NCBI GenBank assembly: GCA_963766075.1
Contig: CAVYAN010000109.1
Coordinates: forward strand, 1 to 13,903
Source of the DNA: an uncultured cyanobacterium
GTDB taxonomy: Bacteria; Cyanobacteriota; Cyanobacteriia; Leptolyngbyales; Leptolyngbyaceae
Direction of reading: 5' to 3'
Length of the DNA: 13,903 nt
This document shows, one piece after another, positions 613 through 12,476 of this stretch. The notes beneath the pieces were generated by a model. The model made no database searches and was not told the DNA's origin. It saw only the letters and a program-made list of their open reading frames with translations. Position 1 is the stretch's first letter. Each line of letters opens with the position of its first letter. The position numbers and the translations under genes are program-made.

Positions 613-697
613 GTATAACAACGCTGTTGCAGCGGATTTTCGAGGGTTGCTGGTGGAATTACAAGATTTTGGCAACCGCTGAACAGCAACGTTATCC
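613..697 (+). mobile_element. attC: Integron attC recombination site
   Basis: R'' GTATAAC (613-619) lies 4 nt after the stop codon; R' is GTTATCC (691-697). Left arm ATAAC-AAC-GCTGTT-G-CAGCGG pairs with right arm CCGCTG-AACAGC-AAC-GTTAT, giving one extrahelical G in the L box and an unpaired AAC/AAC spacer. Confidence 0.8.
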
Positions 698-787
698 AGC
701 GCCACCGCTCAGTCTTACCAAGCCTGGATCAGCCCCGAAAACGATATTTATGACCAACTCTTTGCAGATGAACTGGCAGTGCGGTGA
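692..787 (+). pseudogene. C-terminal remnant of the antitoxin partner of the MazF-like toxin
   Basis: Reads LSSATAQSYQAWISPENDIYDQLFADELAVR*. The acidic W..PENDIYD tail resembles antitoxins upstream of PemK/MazF genes. It overlaps the toxin ATG at 768. There is no start codon and an in-frame TGA lies at 680-682 inside attC. Confidence 0.5.
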
Positions 788-1130
788 CGTTGTCCTCTGC
801 CGAGTGCTCATGCCCTCCACCCAACTCTAGCAATTCAAATTGCGTCCGGCTGTAATTGTTTCAGCCGACTCCATCAATCAAGTTTCAGACGACGTGATGG
901 TCGCTCCCGGCACCTCCAACACAAACCGTTCTCTGACCTCAACCCAATATCTCATCACCGGACCTGAAATCGCGATCGCTGGCATCCGAGTGGAATCGGT
1001 TATTCGGTGTGAGTCAATTTTCACCCTCAATCAACCCATGATCCTCAGAAAACTTGGCTCTTTGAGCATTGAAGCCCTGAACCCAGTGAATCGCTGTTTG
1101 ATCATAGCGCTCCAACTTTCTGTTGGGTAA
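768..1130 (+). pseudogene. mazF: PemK/MazF-family toxin with internal amber stop
   Basis: ATG 768 gives MNWQCGDVVLCRVLMPSTQL*QFKLRPAVIVS...DDVMVAPGTSN...SVIRCESIFTL...ILRKLGSLS in one frame. GDVV, KxRPAVIVS and the later motifs are MazF hallmarks; TAG at 828-830 interrupts it. Confidence 0.8.
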
Positions 1131-1657: not shown

Positions 1658-1939
1658 ATGATTGCCTCCTTCGCCTGCAAACAGACTCAGGCCCTTTTCC
1701 AGAGAGGTTCCGTCCGCCGATTCCCGACTAATATTCAACGCATTGCCCAACGTAAACTCGCCATCCTGGATGCCGCCGAAACCCTAGATGACCTCCGAGT
1801 GCCTCCAGCCAACCGACTCGAAAAGTTAATCGGCGATCGCGACGATCAACACAGTATTCGCATCAACAATCAATAGCGCATCTGCTTTCAGTGGCAAGAC
1901 CACAACGCTCACGACGTCGAAATAGTTGACTGCCACTAA
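1658..1939 (+). pseudogene. higB: HigB (RelE/ParE superfamily, plasmid-maintenance killer) toxin with premature stop
   Basis: MIASFACKQTQALF...RKLAILDAA...DLRVPPANRLEKLIGDR..QHSIRINNQ*RICFQWQDHNAHDVEIVDCH*. The conserved QWRICF tryptophan is TAG (1874-1876) and the terminal DYH motif reads DCH. Confidence 0.88.
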
Positions 1940-1945
1940 TCCCCA

Positions 1946-2239
1946 ATGCAACCCTTACCTCCCGTTCATCCCGGCGAAATCCTCCTCGAAGAATTCCTGA
2001 TTTCCCTGGGCATTAATGTCGAGCGCCTCACCCAAGATATCCACCTCTCCACCGCACACCTGCAAGCCATCATCCAAGCCCAACAGCCCATCACCGCCGA
2101 CACGGCCCTCCGGCTCTCGCGGTACTTCAGCCTCTCCGAGCGCTTTTGGATGAACCTACAAGTTCAATACGATCTAGCTGTGCAAAAAGACACCCTCGCC
2201 GATCGCCTCATTCAAGACGTGAAAGTCTTGTCGCGCTAG
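1946..2239 (+). CDS. higA: HigA-family antitoxin (HTH-XRE)
   Basis: PVHPGEILLEEFL...ITADTALRLSRYF..SERFWMNLQVQYDL motifs; directly downstream of higB. Confidence 0.9.
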   Translation: MQPLPPVHPGEILLEEFLISLGINVERLTQDIHLSTAHLQAIIQAQQPITADTALRLSRYFSLSERFWMNLQVQYDLAVQKDTLADRLIQDVKVLSR

Positions 2240-2372: not shown

Positions 2373-2580
2373 ATGGAGGCACAACCACGGGAATTAGTCT
2401 TATACGTCACAGCAGATAATGACTGCCCCTTTGCAGATTGGTTAGAAACTCTGCGAGACAGGCAAGCAAGAGCTAGAATCAAAAAACCTTATCCTTTTAT
2501 TCTGCGGCGGCGACAAAAGCACCCAGAATCAAGATATTCTTAGAGCAAAACAGTACTGGACTGATTTTCAAAAGAGGTAA
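2373..2580 (+). pseudogene. RelE-like putative addiction-module killer protein with internal deletion and frameshift
   Basis: N-terminus MEAQPRELVLYVTADNDCPFADWLETLRDRQARARIKK, then in the +1 frame LILLFCGGDKSTQNQDILRAKQYWTDFQKR*. The family's central GNxGD...ELRI..GPGYRVY segment is absent. Confidence 0.8.
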
Positions 2581-2581
2581 A

Positions 2582-2887
2582 ATGCCAACCCATAAGAGCT
2601 ACCATGCCTATCTAATCGAGTCCCTCAAAGATCCAGCCGAAGCGGCTGCCTACTTAGATGCCGTTTTAGAAGATGGCGATCGCGAATATATTTTGCTGGC
2701 ATTAAAAAATGTTGCAGAAGCTCGGAGAAGTCATCGGGTCCCTGCCAACGAAACAGATTCGGCTTGGGACTATTGCTACCAAACCCTCGCGCAAGGAAAG
2801 ACACCTGATTTTGTTTTGATCGCCACCCTCCTCAGCGAGCTAGGGCTGAAACTCTCGGTGACGGTCAAAGAAGTGCAAGCAGTCTGA
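2582..2887 (+). CDS. Putative addiction-module antidote protein (HTH)
   Basis: SYHAYLIESLKDPAEAAAYLDAVLEDGD...LLALKNVAEAR...LLSELGLKLSV is typical of antidotes paired with this killer family; starts 1 nt after the toxin stop. Confidence 0.8.
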   Translation: MPTHKSYHAYLIESLKDPAEAAAYLDAVLEDGDREYILLALKNVAEARRSHRVPANETDSAWDYCYQTLAQGKTPDFVLIATLLSELGLKLSVTVKEVQAV

Positions 2888-6096: not shown

Positions 6097-6170
6097 GATT
6101 CACCTTGAGAGTCAACAGGGAAGGGCGACATGCCGGAAACCGGGACAGAGAGAGCGGCAACGCGTCAGTT

Positions 6171-6213
6171 GTATCAAGCAATACTGTTTCTATAGAGATA
6201 TCTCTGATATGAC
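6171..6213 (+). promoter_or_regulatory. NtcA binding site with downstream -10-like element (class II NtcA-activated promoter)
   Basis: GTA-TCAAGCAA-TAC (GTA-N8-TAC, 6171-6184, preceded by T), then 23 nt to TATGAC (6208-6213) with TG at 6205-6206; upstream of a nitrogen-related operon. Confidence 0.65.
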
Positions 6214-6265
6214 TACTAGGACGTTTGAAGCCGTCCGATGGATGCGATTTCAGGCCGTAAAATTT

Positions 6266-6388
6266 ATCGCCCCTAGGGTTCCGGTTCGGCTGTTGGGCGA
6301 ATGACTGGTCCGAGAGGGGCAAGCTGTAACGGTTTTTGCAGGATTGGCCAGACCGGCAGTTACACGGCGGGATAAAAGCCCGGGAGAG
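6266..6388 (+). ncRNA. Guanidine-I riboswitch (ykkC-yxkD leader)
   Basis: GCCCCTAGGGTTCCG (6269-6283) ... CTGGTCCGAGAGGGGC (6305-6320) form P1; TGTAAC/GTTACA close P2; the signature ACACGGCGGGATAAAAGCCCGGGAG (6362-6386) forms P3 and the 3' tail. Confidence 0.93.
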
Positions 6389-6430
6389 ACGTTGTTTGCG
6401 ATCGCAGATGGCCTCTTTCTCGGGCTTTTA
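6373..6430 (+). terminator. Riboswitch expression platform: alternative hairpin, probable terminator competing with aptamer P3
   Basis: TAAAAGCCCGGGAGAGA (6373-6389) is complementary, with G-U pairs, to TCTTTCTCGGGCTTTTA (6414-6430); short U run at the base. Confidence 0.6.
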
Positions 6431-6567
6431 ACGTTCGTCACTACAGGTCCTTTTGGGAGGTTAAGCTGATGACGGATAAGTCTTTCTATTCGGGGGAGGC
6501 TTAGATCTAGTGGGTGCAGCGTCGCATTAATGACAACTCGTTTTGGTATTCCCTGGTATTCCCGATA

Positions 6568-7368
6568 ATGATAGAGTCCGCCAACACCATTCAGCAGCAA
6601 ACCGCGATCGCCAAGCTATCCGTCCAGAACGTCGGCAAGTCCTACAAAATGCGGGATAACGCCGTCACAGTATTAGAGAATGTCACGCTCCACATTCACG
6701 CCCGTGAGCTGATCTGCTTAGTAGGCTCCTCGGGCTGTGGTAAATCCACTCTCCTCAACATCATTGCGGGCTTAATCGCCCCATCCACAGGAGAAGTCTA
6801 CGTCGATGGGCAACAGGTGACGGGCCGCCCCGGCTCTGATCGCGGCATGGTCTTCCAAGGCTACACCCTCTATCCTTGGCTTACCGTAGCGCAGAATGTT
6901 GGGTTTGGCCTCCAGTTGCGCAACGTACCCAAGGCAGAACAACGGCAGCAAGTTGAGTACTTTCTAGAGGTGGTGGGGCTAACGCAGTTTGCGCGGGCCT
7001 ATCCCAAACAGCTATCCGGTGGCATGAAGCAACGGGTGGCGATCGCCCGCGCCCTCGCCAACGAACCCGCCCTGCTGCTCATGGATGAGCCCTTTGGAGC
7101 CCTGGACGCCCAGACCAAAGAGCAAATGCAACAGTTTTTGTTGGAATTGTGGGAGAAAACCCATGTCACGATTTTGATGATTACCCACGATGTTGAAGAA
7201 GCAATTTACCTATCCCAACGGGTCTATGTAATGCAATCACGGCCTGGACGAATTCATCAAGAAGTAAGTGTGAACTTACCCACCCACCGAAATTTAGCTA
7301 TTAAACTAGCGAATGAGTTTGTCCAGATCAAACGTCAAGTCCTAGAGGCTCTGTGGGATCAGTCTTGA
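6568..7368 (+). CDS. ABC transporter ATP-binding protein, NitT/TauT (NrtD/SsuB-like) family
   Basis: GSSGCGKST, MVFQGYTLYPWLTV, LSGGMKQRVAIARAL, LLLMDEPFGALDAQT, ITHDVEEA. ATG 6568 preferred over GTG 6514. Confidence 0.93.
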   Translation: MIESANTIQQQTAIAKLSVQNVGKSYKMRDNAVTVLENVTLHIHARELICLVGSSGCGKSTLLNIIAGLIAPSTGEVYVDGQQVTGRPGSDRGMVFQGYTLYPWLTVAQNVGFGLQLRNVPKAEQRQQVEYFLEVVGLTQFARAYPKQLSGGMKQRVAIARALANEPALLLMDEPFGALDAQTKEQMQQFLLELWEKTHVTILMITHDVEEAIYLSQRVYVMQSRPGRIHQEVSVNLPTHRNLAIKLANEFVQIKRQVLEALWDQS

Positions 7369-7458
7369 TACTGCTGCCCCGATTTTCTCTGGATTACGCC
7401 TTGATTGATCACCCATCAGATTTGTTCCCTAATTTATTACCTATCGGATGCCCCATCC

Positions 7459-8463
7459 ATGTTTAAGTTCCTGCGAAATCGGCTTACCCCCATCTGGTCA
7501 CGTATGGGATTGGCGCTAGCCGCCCTGTTTCTGACAGTTGCCTGTTCCACCCCAAAGAATCCCCTTTCACCCGTTCCCCTTAACTCTAGCACCAATAACT
7601 GGGTGGGTCTTACCGGTCATTACATTGCCAACGCCAAAGACTTCTTTAGAAAGGAAGGCGTCTTGGTCAAGGACTCCTTCTTCGCCGTCGAGGGTGAACA
7701 ACAAGCGGCCTTTATCGCGAAAAAAGTCGATATTGCTTGGTTCACCTCTGGGTCGGCCATCCAGGTTGCAGCCAAAGACCCCACCGCCAAAATTATCTAT
7801 TTAATTGACTATTCCAATGGGGGCGATGGCATCCTTGGCCGGGGGATTCAATCCCCCCAAGACGTGAAAGGCAAAACCATCGCATGCGAGAACATTCTGT
7901 TTGAGAAAGTACTGCTGCGGGCCTATTTGAATAAAGGGGGCCTAACCGAAAAGGATGTCACCATTCAAGACATGCCAGCCGCCGATGCGGCCACGGCCTT
8001 TGCCTCCAAAAAAGTGGATATCGCCGTCAGCTATGAGCCCTATTTACGCCAAGCTGCGAAGTTGGGTGGCGGAGAAGTGATCTTTTCCACCGCCAATACG
8101 AATCTAGTTGCCGATGTGGTGATGGTGCATGACTCTGTGTTGCAATCTCGCAGGGCCGATTTAAAAAATTATTTCAAGGCTGTCGATAAAGCCGTCAAGT
8201 TGGCGATCGCCGCCGATCCAGAAGCCATGAAAATCACGGCAGATACCTTGGGTTCTTCGGCGGAAGAGGTCAAACAACAATTGAAATTTGTCAAACTATT
8301 TGATGTCGAAGGCAATAAAACCGTTGCTTTTAAAAAGGACAATCCCAATAGCTTAATCGGGAATTTGGAATTGGTTGCCAAGGCAGCCTACGATTTCAAG
8401 ATAATTTCCAAACCGTTATCGGTTGATCAACTCTACGATGATTCGATTATCAAAGAGCTGTAA
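7459..8463 (+). CDS. ABC transporter substrate-binding lipoprotein (NMT1/SsuA-like), copy 1
   Basis: Signal peptide with lipobox LTVAC; NNWVG, IDYSNGGDGI, VKGKTIA, VDIAVSYEPYL motifs. ATG 7459 aligns with the start of copy 2. Confidence 0.9.
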   Translation: MFKFLRNRLTPIWSRMGLALAALFLTVACSTPKNPLSPVPLNSSTNNWVGLTGHYIANAKDFFRKEGVLVKDSFFAVEGEQQAAFIAKKVDIAWFTSGSAIQVAAKDPTAKIIYLIDYSNGGDGILGRGIQSPQDVKGKTIACENILFEKVLLRAYLNKGGLTEKDVTIQDMPAADAATAFASKKVDIAVSYEPYLRQAAKLGGGEVIFSTANTNLVADVVMVHDSVLQSRRADLKNYFKAVDKAVKLAIAADPEAMKITADTLGSSAEEVKQQLKFVKLFDVEGNKTVAFKKDNPNSLIGNLELVAKAAYDFKIISKPLSVDQLYDDSIIKEL

Positions 8464-8478
8464 CTTCAACGGCGGCTA

Positions 8479-8503
8479 TCGAGGGGCGACCTTGCCCCCT
8501 CGA
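8479..8503 (+). other. GC-rich intercistronic stem-loop after binding protein 1
   Basis: TCGAGGGGC-GACCTT-GCCCCCTCGA; a related hairpin follows copy 2. Confidence 0.55.
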
Positions 8504-8631
8504 GTTTCCTCCGTTCAGGCAATGTCTTCATAGCAAGCAAATAGTGAATTGGGAGCATTCACCTCTATTATCTATATTGACAACAGTTACCGAGCTTATC
8601 ATCGGATTTATCATCTACCGGATCCCCATTT

Positions 8632-9633
8632 ATGCCTAGATTTCTTCGCAACCGGTTCACCTCTGCTTGGTCACTGATAGGACTGACGCTAGTCTCTCTA
8701 TTTCTGACGGTTGCCTGCACCACTCAGAATGCCCCTCAGTCCACGCCCCTTAACTCGGGTACCAATAACTGGGTGGGCTACACCGGTCATCACATTGCCG
8801 TCGGTAAAGGCTTCTTCAAAGAGCAGAACGTCCCTGTACAGGATTTCTTCTTCTCTAGTGAGAGTGAAGAACAAACGGCCTTTCTCGCTAAAAAACTTGA
8901 TCTGGCTTGGTTCACCTCTGGGACTGCCGTACAGGTCGCGGCCCAAGACCCCACCGCCAAAATTATCTATTTGATTGACTATTCCAATGGGGGCGATGGC
9001 ATCATTGGGCGGGGGATTAAGTCTCCTGCAGATGCGAAAGGCAAGACCATTGCGCGGGAGGACATTCTGTTTGAAAAGGTGCTGTTGCGGGCCTATTTGA
9101 ACAAGGGCGGCCTGACCGAGAAGGATGTCACCATCAAGTCCATGCCGGCTGCCGATGCCGCTACCGCCTTTGCTGCCAAGCAAGTAGATATTGCCGTTAG
9201 CTATGAGCCCTATCTCCGCAAAGCCGCGAAGTTGGGCGGCGGAGAGGTGATCTTTTCTACAGCCAACACCAACCTGATCGCGGATGTGGTGATGGTCCAT
9301 GAGGATGTGTTGAAGTCCCGCAAGGCCGATTTACAAACTTACTTTAAGGCCGTGGATAAAGCCGTCAAATTGGCGATCGCGGCGGATCCAGAAGCCATGA
9401 AAATTACGGGAGATAAGCTAGGCATTTCGGCGGATGAGGTTAAGGAACAATTAAAATTGGTGAAGCTTTTTGATGTCGATGGCAATAAAACCGTTGGCTT
9501 TAACAAGGATAATCCCAGTAATTTAAAGGGGAATTTGGAATTGAATGCCAAGGCAGCCTACGATTTCAAAATAATTTCCAAACCGCTGTCCGTTGATCAA
9601 CTCTACGATGATTCGATTATCAAAGGGCTGTAA
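8632..9633 (+). CDS. ABC transporter substrate-binding lipoprotein (NMT1/SsuA-like), copy 2
   Basis: Lipobox LTVAC; colinear paralogue of 7459..8463 with long identical stretches. Confidence 0.92.
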   Translation: MPRFLRNRFTSAWSLIGLTLVSLFLTVACTTQNAPQSTPLNSGTNNWVGYTGHHIAVGKGFFKEQNVPVQDFFFSSESEEQTAFLAKKLDLAWFTSGTAVQVAAQDPTAKIIYLIDYSNGGDGIIGRGIKSPADAKGKTIAREDILFEKVLLRAYLNKGGLTEKDVTIKSMPAADAATAFAAKQVDIAVSYEPYLRKAAKLGGGEVIFSTANTNLIADVVMVHEDVLKSRKADLQTYFKAVDKAVKLAIAADPEAMKITGDKLGISADEVKEQLKLVKLFDVDGNKTVGFNKDNPSNLKGNLELNAKAAYDFKIISKPLSVDQLYDDSIIKGL

Positions 9634-9651
9634 CTTTAGCTGCATCAATCA

Positions 9652-9669
9652 GGGGGCGAACTTGCCCCC
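9652..9669 (+). other. GC-rich intercistronic stem-loop after binding protein 2
   Basis: GGGGGC-GAACTT-GCCCCC, homologous to the hairpin at 8479-8503. Confidence 0.5.
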
Positions 9670-9705
9670 CAAAATTCCCTCCTTTCAGATAAACAGACTG
9701 CAATC

Positions 9706-11067
9706 ATGGCTGAAACACTGACCCCGGAATTACAAACTCTAAAAACGTCTCTGGAAGCCCAAGGCGTGAAATATGCCCTAGCCAGCTTTGTCGATTTGCA
9801 TGGCATGAGCAAAGCCAAAGCCGTGCCCCTGGCCCACCTGGGACAGATGATGGCTGGATCGGAACTGTTCACGGGGGCCGCCTTGGATGGGGTACCCCAG
9901 GATGTTAGCGATGAGGAAGTCTCTGCCCGCCCTGATCTTAGCTCTGCCACCATTCTGCCCTGGCAGCCCGAATTAGTCTGGTTTGCCAGTGATTTGTATC
10001 TCAAAGGCCAACCCTTTGCCGCCTGTTGCCGACACATTCTGAAAACCGTTCTAGCCGAAGCCGCTCAGATGGGATTTACCTTCAACCTCGGCATTGAAAC
10101 GGAGTTTTTCATTCTCAAGGAAACATCGGCGGGCGAGGCGGTGCCCGTGAGCGATCGCGATACTCTGGCGAAACCCTGCTACGACCTCCAGGGCTTGCTC
10201 GACAATTATCCCTGGGTTACCGAAATTGTTGAGGCCATGAACCAGTTGGGCTGGGATGTTTATTCCTTCGATCATGAAGATGCCAATGGTCAGTTTGAAA
10301 CCGATTTTGGGTATTGTGATGCCCTGAAAATGGGCGATCGCATTGCCTTCTTCCGTCTCATGGTCAAGGAAATTGCCCGCAAGCATGGCTACTTTGCCAG
10401 CTTTATGCCCAAGCCCTTTGCCAATCGCTCCGGCAGTGGGGCGCACTACAACATGTCCCTAGCCGACATCACCACGGGAAAAAACCTGTTTTATAACGCG
10501 GACGACAGTCGTGGATGCCAGCTTTCTCAACTTGGCTATCAGTTTATCGCGGGCATTCTTCGCCATGCGCCCGCGATCTGTGCCGTGATTGCCCCCACGG
10601 TGAACAGCTATAAACGCTTGGTCGCACGCGGCAGCATGTCCGGCTTTACCTGGGCTCCCGTGTATATGTGCTATGGCAATAATAATCGCACCAATATGTT
10701 GCGGATTCCCCTGGCGGGCGGGCGAGTCGAATGTCGGGCCGCCGATATTTCCAGCAATGTTTATCTGGGGGCAGCCATGCTGTTGGCCGCGGGCTTAGAA
10801 GGCATTCGCGAGCAGTTGGATCCGGGGGAGCCGCATACGGAAAATATGTATACCCACTCGCCGCAAGCGTTGACCGAGATGGGGATTGGCTGTTTGCCGC
10901 GCACCCTAGGGGAGGCGATCGCCGCATTTGCCCAGGATCCCTTCAGTCAAAAAGTCATGGGCGATTTGATGTACCACTCCTACGTGGACTATAAAACCCA
11001 GGAATGGCAGGACTACCACAATCACATTTCGGATTGGGAACGGCAACGCTACTTGAAGTTTTTCTAA
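9706..11067 (+). CDS. glnT: GlnT-type ('type III') glutamate-ammonia ligase / gamma-glutamylmethylamide synthetase-like protein
   Basis: FVDLHGMSKAKAVP, GIETEFF, DHEDANGQFE, FMPKPF...GSGAHYNMSL, APTVNSYKRL, TWAP, NNRTNMLRIP, RVECRAAD. DHEDANGQFE and TWAP...NNRT are characteristic of the GlnT/GmaS clade rather than GlnA. Confidence 0.88.
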   Translation: MAETLTPELQTLKTSLEAQGVKYALASFVDLHGMSKAKAVPLAHLGQMMAGSELFTGAALDGVPQDVSDEEVSARPDLSSATILPWQPELVWFASDLYLKGQPFAACCRHILKTVLAEAAQMGFTFNLGIETEFFILKETSAGEAVPVSDRDTLAKPCYDLQGLLDNYPWVTEIVEAMNQLGWDVYSFDHEDANGQFETDFGYCDALKMGDRIAFFRLMVKEIARKHGYFASFMPKPFANRSGSGAHYNMSLADITTGKNLFYNADDSRGCQLSQLGYQFIAGILRHAPAICAVIAPTVNSYKRLVARGSMSGFTWAPVYMCYGNNNRTNMLRIPLAGGRVECRAADISSNVYLGAAMLLAAGLEGIREQLDPGEPHTENMYTHSPQALTEMGIGCLPRTLGEAIAAFAQDPFSQKVMGDLMYHSYVDYKTQEWQDYHNHISDWERQRYLKFF

Positions 11068-11073
11068 CTGGAG

Positions 11074-11934
11074 ATGCCCACCGTGATCACCCCCTCAACG
11101 CCCATTCCCCCAAGCAGTCGCCAGCACACCTACTTGCAACCCTCCGTATTTTGGAGCATTCGCCAAGGCTTCCCGAAGCGGCTATCGTTTTTGATCGTGA
11201 GTCTGGCGCTGGCCATACCGCTGGTGTTTTGGTCAATCTTCAGTTACTCCGGGCTGGTGACGCCGATCTTCCTGCCTACCCCCACGGCGGTGTTGCAGGC
11301 TGGACTGAAAATGTTCGCTGAAAATAACCTGCTGCTGGATATCCTGGTTAGCAGTGGCCGGGTACTGGCGGGGTTTCTGGTGGCCGCTCTCATCGGTGTG
11401 CCCATCGGCATTGCGATGGGCACGTTTTACAGTATGGACAGTCTGTTTGCCCCATTGGTGGGCACCGTGCGCTATATGCCCGTCACCGCTTTTGTGCCGT
11501 TGATTATCATTTGGGTGGGGCTGGGTGAAGCCTCCAAGGTGCTGATCATCATGCTGGGTGTTGTGTTGTATAACGCGATCATGATTGCCGACGCTGTGAA
11601 GTTTATCCCCAGTGAAATGATTAATGTGGCCTATACGCTGGGTGGCAATCGCTGGGATGTTCTGTTCCGCGTCATTGTGCCTGCGGCGTTTCCCAGCGTG
11701 CTCGATACGCTGCGGGTCAATATTTCCGGAGCATGGAATTTTTTAGTGATTGCGGAATTAGTGGCGGCGCAAAATGGCATTGGATTCAAAATCATTCAGG
11801 CCCAGCGCTTTCTGCAAACCGATAAAGTGCTCTTCTGCATTATTTTAATTGGCCTGATTGGCTTAATCATCGACTACGGGCTGAAATTTCTGTCGCAAAA
11901 GCTCACTCCCTGGGCGGATCAAACCCGCCATTAA
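11074..11934 (+). CDS. ABC transporter permease, NitT/TauT family
   Basis: FLPTPTAV, hydrophobic helices, EAA-like loop MINVAYTLGGNRWDVLFRVIVPAAFP, WNFLVIAELVAA. Confidence 0.92.
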   Translation: MPTVITPSTPIPPSSRQHTYLQPSVFWSIRQGFPKRLSFLIVSLALAIPLVFWSIFSYSGLVTPIFLPTPTAVLQAGLKMFAENNLLLDILVSSGRVLAGFLVAALIGVPIGIAMGTFYSMDSLFAPLVGTVRYMPVTAFVPLIIIWVGLGEASKVLIIMLGVVLYNAIMIADAVKFIPSEMINVAYTLGGNRWDVLFRVIVPAAFPSVLDTLRVNISGAWNFLVIAELVAAQNGIGFKIIQAQRFLQTDKVLFCIILIGLIGLIIDYGLKFLSQKLTPWADQTRH

Positions 11935-11954: not shown

Positions 11955-12476
11955 TCAACCACTGGCACAGTCCGAACCCTCAAAGCCTGATTCTAATTTC
12001 TTCTCCCAGAATAAGGCCCGCCCCATTTGAGGATCGAGCTCAAAGCCCCTGAAGCCGAAGGCTGCGTAGGCGGCTTGGGCCACCCGGTTGCCCTCTAGAA
12101 CCTCCAGGGTCAGTTTGCAGCAGCCCAAATCCAGGGCGATCGCCTCGGCTTTCTGGAGCAGGCGTTTGGACAAGCCTTTCCCTCGATAAGGCGATGCGAC
12201 GATGACATCGTGAATATTCAGTAGGGGTTTGCAGGCAAAGGTTGAGAAACCTTCTAAACAGACCACCATCCCCGCTGGTTCCCCATCTACCATCGCCAGA
12301 ATGACATGGGCGGCTGTTCTCTTGGCCAATTCTGTGGGGAGATTGGCTTTCACGAAGTCGGGCAGTCCTTGGCCACCCCCCATGGGATCCAGCGCATAGG
12401 CCTCTAGTAACTGAACCATGGCCTCCGCCTGGGCGGGCAGGCTCAGATCGGCTTCAAAAATTTCAATTATCTCCAT
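11955..12476 (-). CDS. GNAT-family N-acetyltransferase
   Basis: GFSTFACKPLLNIHDVIV..YRGKGLSKRLL...GCCKLTLEVLEGN..AQAAY..FGF; acetyl-CoA motif A present. Confidence 0.9.
   Translation of the reverse strand: MEIIEIFEADLSLPAQAEAMVQLLEAYALDPMGGGQGLPDFVKANLPTELAKRTAAHVILAMVDGEPAGMVVCLEGFSTFACKPLLNIHDVIVASPYRGKGLSKRLLQKAEAIALDLGCCKLTLEVLEGNRVAQAAYAAFGFRGFELDPQMGRALFWEKKLESGFEGSDCASG

Follow-up and report, generated by a model that had tools for sequence, protein, structure and literature searches.

An uncultured cyanobacterium carries an operon in which a guanidine-I riboswitch aptamer precedes an ABC importer and a GmaS-like glutamate ligase, and, judged from sequence, the ligase probably performs an undescribed step in the use of guanidine as a nitrogen source. 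This reading follows from two features considered together: an ordinary guanidine-splitting enzyme is encoded elsewhere in the genome, and the ligase gene lies behind a guanidine switch. Our full explanation, a guanidine-switched scavenging operon with a second importer and a guanidine-glutamylating ligase, has in our estimate a probability of roughly 0.42.

A guanidine-I aptamer heads an importer and ligase operon

The window analyzed here is a whole contig of 13.9 kb (C109). The original prediction, that a near-consensus guanidine-I aptamer heads a five-gene cluster, was borne out (Table 1). The Rfam covariance model RF00442 matched the RNA at full length (107 of 107 model positions; E, 9.9e-13) and above the gathering threshold, and the genes for an ATPase, two binding proteins, a glutamine synthetase (GS)-fold ligase, and a permease follow it in the same direction and in the predicted order. 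RF00442 was the sole Rfam family exceeding its gathering score in the window, and a permissive scan of positions 6150-6520 revealed no rival ykkC-type family, with all other families scoring 18 bits or less. The aptamer core comprises 39 invariant columns common to the window aptamer and 17 others, including the leader of the genome's own gdmH, and it is identical across ligase-linked, gdmH-linked, and carboxylase-linked aptamers. By its core sequence, then, the window RNA is of the ordinary guanidine-I type and is predicted to bind guanidinium and to switch; of a variant aptamer sensing a related ligand, also considered at the outset, there was no sign.

Table 1 Features of the operon and its surroundings
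Feature	Position	Strand	Basis or remark
NtcA-type box, candidate	6171..6184	+	GTATCAAGCAATAC (GTA-N8-TAC); 91 nt upstream of aptamer
Guanidine-I (ykkC subtype 1) riboswitch aptamer	6262..6388	+	RF00442, 77.5 bits (cut-off, 63)
Expression platform: long terminator-like hairpin, then UUUU	6373..6433	+	Folding energy
ABC transporter ATPase, NitT/TauT type	6514..7368	+	PF00005, 121.9 bits
Substrate-binding lipoprotein 1, NMT1/SsuA type	7405..8463 (likely start, 7459)	+	PF09084 NMT1, 72 bits; lipobox LTVAC
Substrate-binding lipoprotein 2, tandem duplicate of lipoprotein 1	8632..9633	+	78% identical over 334 residues
GS-fold, GmaS-like ATP-dependent glutamate ligase (predicted)	9706..11067	+	PF00120, 334.7 bits
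ABC transporter permease	11074..11934	+	PF00528, 88.6 bits; starts 6 nt past ligase stop
GNAT gene, convergent	11955-12476	-	

Two layers of control are apparent upstream of the first gene. The 5' arm of the hairpin (6373-6389) is the conserved 3' strand of the aptamer; the two structures are mutually exclusive, which points to an ON switch working by anti-termination. The fold of 6366-6440 had an energy of -43.5 kcal/mol (z, -7.75), and none of 200 shuffled sequences was equally stable; of this structure, a simple terminator scan picked up just the inner hairpin (6391-6412). The pattern GTA-N8-TAC, which we take to be the NtcA-type motif, occurs in the window only at the site upstream of the aptamer. 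Across the 20 aptamers examined (that of the window plus 19 in related loci), 7 have this pattern in the 250 nt preceding them; the background frequency is 0.089 per kb. The operon promoter is thus a probable NtcA-controlled promoter of the nitrogen starvation type, and the available text of PMC12704784 reports gdmH and gimABC to be under NtcA control.

The window importer is a paralog of GimABC

The best NCBIfam models for the ATPase were those of SaoA and of taurine and nitrate ATPases, each scoring under its own cut-off. Compared with the genome's own Gim proteins, the ATPase is 56% identical to GimC, the permease 40% identical to GimB, and the binding proteins 24 to 30% identical to GimA (24% for binding protein 1). 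By these identities, and with the gim genes themselves on another contig (C86), the window importer is paralogous, not orthologous, to GimABC. In the available text of PMC12704784, the guanidine site of GimA consists of W59, W62, F205, D135, and D233; we borrowed this numbering from a GimA homolog with exactly these residues. At W59/W62/D135/F205/D233, binding protein 1 reads W/L/D/Y/D and binding protein 2 reads W/Y/D/Y/D, so that W59, D135, and D233 are retained in both, position 205 is aromatic in both, and position 62 is aromatic in one copy.

The operon can be compared with the GdmH-GhaAB-GimABC locus of Synechocystis sp. PCC 6803 (sll1077-sll1082), as the available text of PMC12704784 describes it. 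Each pairs a guanidine-I riboswitch and a likely NtcA input with a NitT/TauT importer, whose binding protein has an aromatic cage and two aspartates in the Synechocystis locus and putatively in the window operon as well. Unlike that locus, the window operon lacks GdmH and the Ni chaperones, its binding proteins are duplicated and diverged from GimA, its aptamer directly precedes the importer, and a GS-fold ligase is encoded between the binding-protein and permease genes.

A known guanidine route is encoded elsewhere in the genome

Within the window, we found no genes for GdmH, guanidine carboxylase, CgdAB, or Gdx. The expectation that no known guanidine enzyme accompanies the ligase therefore stood for the window but not for the genome, where contig C86 carries a true copy of the PCC 6803-type locus: a second RF00442 aptamer (70.5 bits) ahead of gdmH-ghaA-ghaB-gimA-gimB-gimC. 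No full TIGR02712 carboxylase was found in the host genome; the best match, at 535 bits, covers the biotin carboxylase part only. A conventional hydrolase elsewhere in the genome had been named beforehand as one half of the case against a new route, and gdmH on C86 supplies that half. The genome also holds GlnA and GlnN.

The ligase is GmaS-like with an altered amine pocket

The ligase matched the NCBIfam model for type III glutamate--ammonia ligase (TIGR03105) at 580.7 bits (cut-off, 469.6). Its best solved relatives were 9qur, a "glutamate--methylamine ligase" (421 bits), and Rhodovulum GmaS, 7cql (329 bits), with true GS at 266 bits. Thr56, Ala59, and Trp316 of the ligase replace GS Asp50', Ser53', and the flap Glu, which GlnA from the same genome retains as D, S, and E; by these residues the ligase is not a true glutamine synthetase. 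Alignment to 7cql and 9qur indicated that D177, E179, E186, R312, W300, and K30' of GmaS (roles from PMC7948447) are kept. The initial view of the protein as GmaS-like rather than GS-like thus holds, by both its closest structures and its active-site residues.

With RhGmaS (7cql; PMC7948447) and 9qur, the ligase shares fold, length, the ligands of ATP, Mg, and glutamate, the catalytic D177/E186/R312, and the Trp in the flap; like them, it is without Asp50'. It differs from them in the methylamine pocket, where Q175 has become S187 and N188 has become D200, in a W189-to-F change, in the Asp50' loop, which carries Asp61 as an additional conserved residue, in falling in a separate clade, in lacking an N-methylglutamate pathway context in the window, and in its predicted regulation by guanidine, not methylamine. 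The clade signature is T56, D61, S187, D189, D200, F201, and W316. The S187/D200 pair is present in 77 of 78 ligase open reading frames of at least 51% identity, whereas all nine paralogs of 30 to 44% identity retain the Q/N pair, and a FastTree tree gave the clade an SH-like support of 98 to 99. Bacillus subtilis GSI-alpha has the same residues as D200 and F201 in those columns; this portion of the signature may therefore have been inherited from an ancestor and not be an adaptation to guanidine.

These residues bear on the main rival explanation, in which the ligase is a working GS isoform, co-induced with guanidine uptake, that assimilates the three ammonium equivalents from GdmH plus urease or from the carboxylase pathway. 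The match of D200 and F201 to the B. subtilis columns and the TIGR03105 label are both consistent with such a function. The label, however, is uninformative on substrate, since GmaS-type proteins fall under the same model (the paralog of this type in the genome scores 690 bits). The ligase lacks the three residues that define ammonium catalysis, and RhGmaS, of the same architecture, has a Km of 8.7 mM for NH4Cl versus 27 uM for methylamine (PMC7948447). Moreover, the genome already has GlnA and GlnN, which leaves no obvious need for a third ammonium ligase. We consider recapture of ammonium unlikely, though it is the explanation against which ours must chiefly be weighed.

A rather improbable alternative is that the importer also takes up a compound such as methylguanidine, that the GdmH or carboxylase route frees an amine (e.g., methylamine), and that the ligase captures this amine as a gamma-glutamyl amide. 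The closest characterized enzymes are indeed methylamine ligases, and the Leu at the W62 position of one binding protein may hint at another ligand; but the amine-pocket signature is unlike those of both solved GmaS enzymes and of the GmaS-type paralog in the same genome, no N-methylglutamate pathway genes (mgs/mgd) were found in the window, and the aptamer core is that of an ordinary guanidine-I riboswitch.

The ligase is an optional companion of known guanidine routes

The survey covered 80 sources, i.e., the window plus 79 related loci. The aptamer was present at 20 of the 80, all within a clade of at least 71% identity, and whole-genome searches of 11 ligase genomes without GdmH, done with Rfam's own model, confirmed aptamers in 10. 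The ligase clade spans several phyla, with hosts among cyanobacteria, Verrucomicrobia, and Streptomyces. In their guanidine loci it is found behind aptamers (RS-LIG-gimABC in L008), within gdmH operons (RS-gdmH-ghaA-LIG-ghaB-gimABC in L026, L031, and L032; RS-gdmH-ghaA-ghaB-ATP-SBP-IsoCh-MBL-LIG-PERM in L010), and beside guanidine carboxylase operon genes (L005, L017, L034, L073, and L080), as in L034, where RS-SBP-PERM-ATP-CREAT-LIG adjoins the carboxylase. In 53 of the 80 sources, a gene for an ABC component is found no more than 7 kb from the ligase gene. A gene for a creatininase-fold hydrolase, often an immediate neighbor, lies within that distance in 29 and directly adjoins the ligase gene, in the same orientation, in 22. 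In the Verrucomicrobia loci, the ligase is accompanied by Rieske oxygenase genes (14/80) and GFA-type genes (11/80), which suggest N-demethylation releasing formaldehyde and fit capture of a released amine.

Known guanidine routes are nearly always present alongside the ligase: a GdmH ortholog or a TIGR02712 carboxylase was found in 50 of 55 ligase-bearing genomes. Among 401 sampled cyanobacteria, all 7 ligase-bearing genomes also hold GdmH, and 47 of the 54 GdmH-bearing genomes lack the ligase. The ligase is thus an optional accessory, and the original idea of a separate assimilation route did not survive in stand-alone form. The co-occurring routes have ammonium as their one common product, which favors recapture of ammonium, as does the fact that this explanation requires no partner hydrolase in the host genome; a preprint (10.1101/2025.03.14.643060), in its available text, likewise interprets a gdmH-adjacent GS gene of Synechococcus WH8020 as serving nitrogen assimilation. 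The frequent amidohydrolase partners, however, would be without a role beside a true GS.

The optional character of the ligase is also consistent with a conjugate made for other ends (buffering of toxic guanidine, storage, or signaling) or with an unrelated substrate, the ligase merely riding in the operon. According to the available text of PMC12704784, guanidine concentrations above 5 mM are toxic to Synechocystis, whose cells keep import and export in balance. One complete 2.77-Mb chromosome (G436) holds the ligase with a GATase-type neighbor, and a search of it for carboxylase and GdmH found neither. The probable nitrogen starvation promoter and the importer of a high-affinity type nevertheless point to scavenging and not to detoxification, and tight, repeated nesting among guanidine genes across phyla speaks against a passenger gene; such non-assimilatory roles seem to us quite improbable.

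DISCUSSION

The aptamer, the overlapping hairpin, the gene identities, the residues, and the distribution described above are the observations on which our preferred reading, acylation of guanidine, is built; the importer ligand, the ligase nucleophile, and the fate of the product are what we infer from them. The operon would serve nitrogen scavenging and be controlled twice, by a probable NtcA promoter and by a guanidine-I riboswitch through which, once guanidine is bound, transcription would pass the terminator. It would supply a second NitT/TauT importer, paralogous to GimABC, whose two binding proteins keep the predicted aromatic-plus-two-aspartate guanidinium site, and, from a gene nested among the importer genes, a ligase of the GmaS kind requiring ATP and glutamate. 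The ligase would form gamma-glutamyl phosphate and couple it with imported guanidine, deprotonated by Asp189, to yield N-(gamma-glutamyl)guanidine, an acylguanidine that should be far more readily hydrolyzed than guanidinium. A ureohydrolase or amidohydrolase would then give glutamine and urea or an equivalent pair; in the host genome this enzyme could be GdmH, and in relatives it could be a creatininase-fold, isochorismatase-type, metallo-beta-lactamase, or GATase partner.

That the ligase gamma-glutamylates imported guanidine is, on this sequence evidence, a possibility somewhat short of even odds. More tentative still is the extension to the whole S187/D200 clade as guanidine:glutamate ligases catalyzing the first step of a third, ATP-driven route to glutamine and urea, alongside GdmH or carboxylase and perhaps as a high-affinity branch with its own importer. 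Guanidinium, with a pKa of about 13.6, is a poor nucleophile, which argues against its acylation. Acting on an acylguanidine, a creatininase-type partner would most obviously just undo the ligation, a futile reversal. Since nearly every ligase genome has a known guanidine route, a separate pathway also looks redundant.

There are precedents, by analogy, in GS-like ligases that lack the ammonium residues, are encoded beside a transporter, and glutamylate the transported amine: PuuA and IpuC, of the PuuA/PuuD and IpuC/IpuF pathways for putrescine and isopropylamine, act in this manner. GmaS is another (PMC7948447). As in the Puu and Ipu pathways, the window ligase shares its operon with an uptake system, and in its relatives an amidohydrolase adjoins the ligase. 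In contrast with those pathways, no partner gamma-glutamyl or amide hydrolase was found in the window operon, nor a close one in the 85% complete genome (best creatininase-fold match, 30% identity, on another contig; isochorismatase, 39% identity; metallo-beta-lactamase, none); the partner in relatives is most often of the creatininase fold, unlike PuuD, and the proposed substrate is guanidine and not an amine. Guanidine carboxylase operons (riboswitch, ABC importer, CgdAB, carboxylase, and allophanate hydrolase) resemble our proposal in ATP-dependent activation of guanidine before hydrolysis, the activating group proposed here being glutamyl instead of carboxyl.

The literature surveyed describes two routes of guanidine breakdown, carboxylation and Ni-dependent hydrolysis; ammonium is a product of both. 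Our searches found no published description of the ligase, in agreement with the original view of a candidate undescribed system. The guanidine regulon thus has a recurrent part, a conserved ligase that lies behind a riboswitch and whose amine pocket is altered, to which no reaction is assigned. The window holds its minimal form, an importer and a ligase with no partner hydrolase, and is the simplest natural test case. If guanidine is acylated, the ligase would have a new activity and would channel guanidine nitrogen straight into glutamine, and the routine annotation "type III glutamate--ammonia ligase" would be corrected; if ammonium is the only substrate, GmaS-type active sites would prove able to serve as glutamine synthetases.

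Operon layout, regulation and importer ligand

The predicted gene order (an aptamer, then genes for an ATPase, two binding proteins, a ligase and a permease, with a convergent GNAT gene closing the cluster) proved correct, and RF00442 was the single Rfam family over threshold in the whole window. The two binding proteins are tandem duplicates (78% identical). The GNAT gene recurs in no related locus and was dropped as a functional partner. The host assembly (5.05 Mb, 85% complete), in which the window is the entire contig C109, is cyanobacterial: LdpA was found, and the closest ligase locus comes from Alkalinema.

Features of the window
Feature	Coordinates	Strand	Details
Small toxin-antitoxin-like pair, first of three in a row	627-1130		PemK/MazF-like toxin 840-1130, 67-aa ORF ahead
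Second pair	1658-2239		HigB-like 1658-1876; HigA 1946-2239 (TIGR02607, 93 bits)
Third pair	2373-2887		HI1420-type antidote 2582-2887; 56-aa ORF ahead without family match
RarA/MgsA AAA+ ATPase, 798 aa	3305-5701	-	NF009881, 1186.7 bits; fused to C-terminal methyltransferase-like domain (PF13847, residues 555-666)
GTA-N8-TAC box	6171-6184		91 nt upstream of aptamer; sole one in window
Guanidine-I aptamer	6262-6388	+	RF00442, 77.5 bits (gathering score 63), E 9.9e-13, full-length
Long hairpin	6373-6430		5' arm 6373-6389; UUUU at end
Mini-ORF, 11 codons	6469-6504	+	GGGAGG Shine-Dalgarno 8 nt upstream; between riboswitch terminator and ATPase GTG
ABC ATPase	6514-7368	+	first of five co-directional genes behind aptamer; GTG start
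Binding protein 1, NMT1/SsuA-type	7405-8463	+	start probably 7459; lipoprotein signal peptide
Binding protein 2, NMT1/SsuA-type	8632-9633	+	lipoprotein signal peptide
Glutamine synthetase (GS)-fold ligase	9706-11067	+	PF00120, 334.7 bits; TIGR03105, 580.7 bits (cut-off 469.6)
Permease	11074-11934	+	start 6 nt past ligase stop
GNAT gene	11955-12476	convergent	closes cluster
Membrane protein, 415 aa	12519-13766	-	DsbD_2 domain (167 bits) and ferric-reductase-like/MsrQ-like haem domain

A variant aptamer, which the original prediction had allowed for, was rejected: the conserved core is that of other guanidine-I aptamers, and a permissive scan of 6150-6520 returned no rival ykkC-type family. The conserved 3' strand of the aptamer doubles as the 5' arm of a long hairpin (-43.5 kcal/mol, z -7.75; none of 200 shuffles was as stable), of which a simple terminator scan flagged the inner hairpin alone. 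Because the aptamer and the hairpin are mutually exclusive, we infer that ligand binding prevents termination, i.e., that the riboswitch is an ON switch. Of 20 aptamers compared (that of the window plus 19 from related loci), 7 have a GTA-N8-TAC box no more than 250 nt upstream; the background frequency is 0.089 per kb. A report on Synechocystis (PMC12704784) shows gdmH, the gene for the Ni-dependent guanidine hydrolase, and gimABC, the guanidine ABC importer genes, under NtcA control. Dual control of the window operon by nitrogen status and guanidine is thus likely. In a search of sequencing runs with sampled words from the DNA, only two runs contained ~5% of the words, and no RNA run was listed as containing them.

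At gathering thresholds, nine non-cyanobacterial ligase loci (146 kb) contained one tRNA only and no guanidine riboswitch of any class. Protein regulators probably act at such loci, which have MarR- and NikR-like genes in the vicinity. At L070, L073, L077, L080 and L081, a NikR-like regulator gene adjoins the ligase or guanidine carboxylase genes, in place of the riboswitch seen in other genomes.

The guanidinium site of GimA, as given in PMC12704784, comprises W59, W62, F205, D135 and D233 (KD, 97 nM). Its numbering was transferred via a GimA homologue with exactly these residues at these positions. In that order, binding protein 1 has W/L/Y/D/D and binding protein 2 has W/Y/Y/D/D, so that Leu and Tyr, respectively, occupy the W62 position. 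The 12 other ligase-linked binding proteins aligned all have both Asp residues and aromatics at the remaining three positions. These residues fit, but do not prove, guanidinium or a close analogue as the ligand.

A conventional guanidine route in the same genome

The original statement that no known guanidine enzyme accompanies the ligase holds for the window but not for the genome. On contig C86, a second RF00442 aptamer (70.5 bits) precedes arginase-family, HypA-like and HypB-like genes and genes for a binding protein, a permease and an ATPase, which makes it the canonical gdmH-ghaA-ghaB-gimABC locus (ghaAB encode Ni chaperones for GdmH). The search of the rest of the genome thus recovered gdmH, while a full-length TIGR02712 guanidine carboxylase was not found there. 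The original prediction had named, as a finding that would count against it, a ligase that only makes glutamine from ammonium while conventional catabolism proceeds elsewhere; the second half of that condition holds, since a guanidine hydrolase is encoded on C86. The window transporter is a paralogue of the importer on C86, with lower identities to that GimABC in the binding proteins (24 to 30%) than in the permease (40%) and ATPase (56%).

The ligase is GmaS-like

The best solved relatives of the ligase are 9qur, a "glutamate--methylamine ligase" (421 bits), and Rhodovulum GmaS, 7cql (329 bits); true GS enzymes score at most 266 bits. In alignments, GS Asp50', Ser53' and the catalytic flap Glu are replaced by Thr, Ala and Trp, and the GmaS catalytic and ligand residues D177, E179, E186, R288, R312, R327, W300 and K30', whose roles are described in PMC7948447, are kept. 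On these residues, the window ligase is assigned as no glutamine synthetase. The TIGR03105 label was rejected as evidence for GS function and carries no weight on the substrate, because the GmaS-type paralogue of the same genome scores higher on that model (690 bits).

What the window adds here is a comparison of ligase residues with those of GlnA, GlnN and the GmaS-type paralogue encoded in its own genome. Five GS-fold genes were found: GlnA, a 723-residue GlnN, the GmaS-type paralogue (43% identical to the window ligase), a more distant GS-like gene and the window ligase. GlnA is normal, with D, S and E in the Asp50', Ser53' and flap Glu columns. Contigs C2, C26 and C60 (L090, L088 and L089) carry members of this set besides the window ligase, with the GmaS-type gene on C26 and the GS-like gene on C60. 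The C26 paralogue adjoins PD-(D/E)XK transposase-like, alpha/beta hydrolase and fatty-acid-desaturase-like genes.

For Rhodovulum GmaS, whose active site has the same layout, Table 1 of PMC7948447 lists Km values of 27 uM (methylamine) and 8.7 mM (NH4Cl). Two of the seven methylamine pocket residues listed in that paper differ in the window ligase (Q175 to Ser187 and N188 to Asp200); W189 corresponds to Phe201, and an additional conserved residue, Asp61, lies in the Asp50' loop. Capture of methylamine or a similar amine by the ligase is improbable. The pattern T56/S187/D189/D200/W316 was present in 77 of 78 ligase open reading frames of at least 51% identity, the window's included (the exception is L053), and all nine paralogues from the same loci (30 to 44% identity) keep Gln and Asn at the two positions. 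In a FastTree of 110 GS-fold proteins (supports are SH-like, not bootstrap), true GS enzymes formed one group (support, 99), and the Ser/Asp proteins formed a 23-row clade (support, 98) within a 33-row clade (support, 99), apart from the Gln/Asn groups. The Ser/Asp ligases are a distinct clade. Asp200 as a guanidine-specific adaptation is weakened by B. subtilis GS, which shares Asp-Phe at the D200/F201 columns, so that this part of the signature may be ancestral. L045 carries two Ser/Asp copies (72% and 74% identical), and at L037 to L043 a GmaS-type ligase, a GATase and an Fe-alcohol dehydrogenase lie back to back with the Ser/Asp ligase.

Genomic company of the ligase

Scanning reference genomes gave 80 ligase loci, many of them short contigs. 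In the survey that the original prediction proposed, a covariance model built here, which superseded a regular expression, placed an aptamer in 20 of the 80, all with a ligase of at least 71% identity, and in none of the 35 at or below 67%. Since 18 of its matches were its own training sequences, Rfam's model was relied on for confirmation in whole genomes; it scored aptamers above its cut-off in 10 of the 11 ligase genomes without GdmH, searched whole. Aptamer-free loci include ones from Streptomyces, Planctomycetota and Verrucomicrobia.

Examples of gene orders at aptamer-led ligase loci (RS, riboswitch; SBP, binding protein; ATP, ATPase; PERM, permease; LIG, ligase; MBL, metallo-beta-lactamase)
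Gene order	Loci
RS-ATP-SBP-LIG-PERM, window-like	L012; L007 and L009 with extra MBL gene
RS-gdmH-ghaA-ghaB-ATP-SBP-isochorismatase-MBL-LIG-PERM	L010
RS-gdmH-ghaA-LIG-ghaB-gimABC	L026, L031, L032
RS-LIG-gimABC	L008, Nodosilinea nodulosa PCC 7104 (culturable; gdmH elsewhere in genome)
RS-SBP-PERM-ATP-creatininase-LIG, divergent from guanidine carboxylase	L034, Thiofaba

Within 7 kb of the ligase, an ABC component was present in 53 of the 80 sources, a creatininase-fold gene in 29 (adjacent on the same strand in 22), carboxylase in 9, class-I GATase in 8, and isochorismatase-type, MBL and DUF1989 (CgdAB-type) genes in 7 each; these counts are lower bounds, the ORF picker having sometimes retained an antisense frame. 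L034 and L046 are two relatives with a creatininase-fold partner. In Verrucomicrobia (L059, L061, L063, L064, L065, L071 and L082), a GFA-type (formaldehyde-activating-like) gene comes after a ligase-creatininase pair, with a Rieske oxygenase gene, an FGE-sulfatase-like gene and a 349-aa protein without assignment near. The GFA and Rieske company suggests that a methylated guanidino compound undergoes oxidative N-demethylation.

The ligase accompanies known guanidine routes

A known guanidine route was found in 50 of 55 ligase genomes. In the first set (n = 26), 15 had a GdmH orthologue (at least 85% identity), and the other 11 included 9 with a carboxylase over the TIGR02712 cut-off and 1 with a carboxylase split over two contigs. 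In the second (n = 29), the carboxylase was over the cut-off in 15 and partial in 2, and 8 of the remainder had GdmH. Neither enzyme was found in G420, G424, G428, G436 or G443. In G443, the ligase lies at a contig end beside CgdAB-type genes. The G436 chromosome is complete (2.77 Mb), and its locus L066 is the single good candidate for a ligase that no known guanidine route accompanies. L066 has a Ser/Asp-type ligase (54% identical) with a class-I GATase and an alpha/beta hydrolase and no ABC genes near. Of 401 evenly sampled cyanobacterial genomes, 54 had GdmH and 7 a ligase orthologue (at least 68% identity), all 7 within the 54; no probability was put on this co-occurrence, since relatives are not independent. 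The 47 GdmH genomes without the ligase mark it as optional. The ligase is accessory to a known route and does not stand alone.

Recapture of released ammonium by the ligase is favored by one fact, namely that of the products of the two co-occurring routes only ammonium is shared. The active-site residues of the ligase count against this reading, which we regard as unlikely.

Proposed function

Three candidate nucleophiles are left: guanidine itself, ammonium, or an amine that a substituted guanidine releases. Where GS-like ligases lack the ammonium residues and stand beside a transporter, their substrate is normally the compound transported, which they glutamylate, as PuuA and IpuC do. GmaS, likewise without ammonium residues, is a further precedent (PMC7948447). 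On this ground, and because the pocket departs from that of GmaS, amidohydrolase neighbours recur, and two true GS enzymes are already present in the cell, we tentatively favor guanidine as the nucleophile (probability of about 0.4). A nonassimilatory role for the ligase is quite doubtful. With guanidine as the nucleophile, the product would be an N-acylguanidine, on chemical grounds far less basic and more easily hydrolysed, and the proposed acylation would parallel the guanidine carboxylase route, in which carboxylation activates guanidine. Cleavage at the amidino carbon might then, speculatively, yield glutamine and urea by arginase-family chemistry, GdmH belonging to that family.

Literature searches on guanidine riboswitches/ykkC, glutamylmethylamide synthetase and creatininase (supplementary synteny figures and the gene lists of Nelson et al. 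2017 lay beyond their scope) found no paper treating the ligase, and none matched glutamylguanidine or a guanidine ligase under five spellings. In a 2025 review of guanidine metabolism (PMC12623156), a term search found neither "glutamine synth" nor "glutamyl" nor "GlnT." A preprint (10.1101/2025.03.14.643060) remarks in passing that gdmH adjoins a glutamine synthetase gene in Synechococcus WH8020.

In the 85% complete host genome, the partner hydrolases had distant matches only (best identities, 30%, 39% and none). With no close partner hydrolase, the window represents a minimal, hydrolase-free form of the system, an importer with a duplicated binding protein plus the ligase, and by the counts of ligase genomes made here the known guanidine route is accompanied, not replaced.
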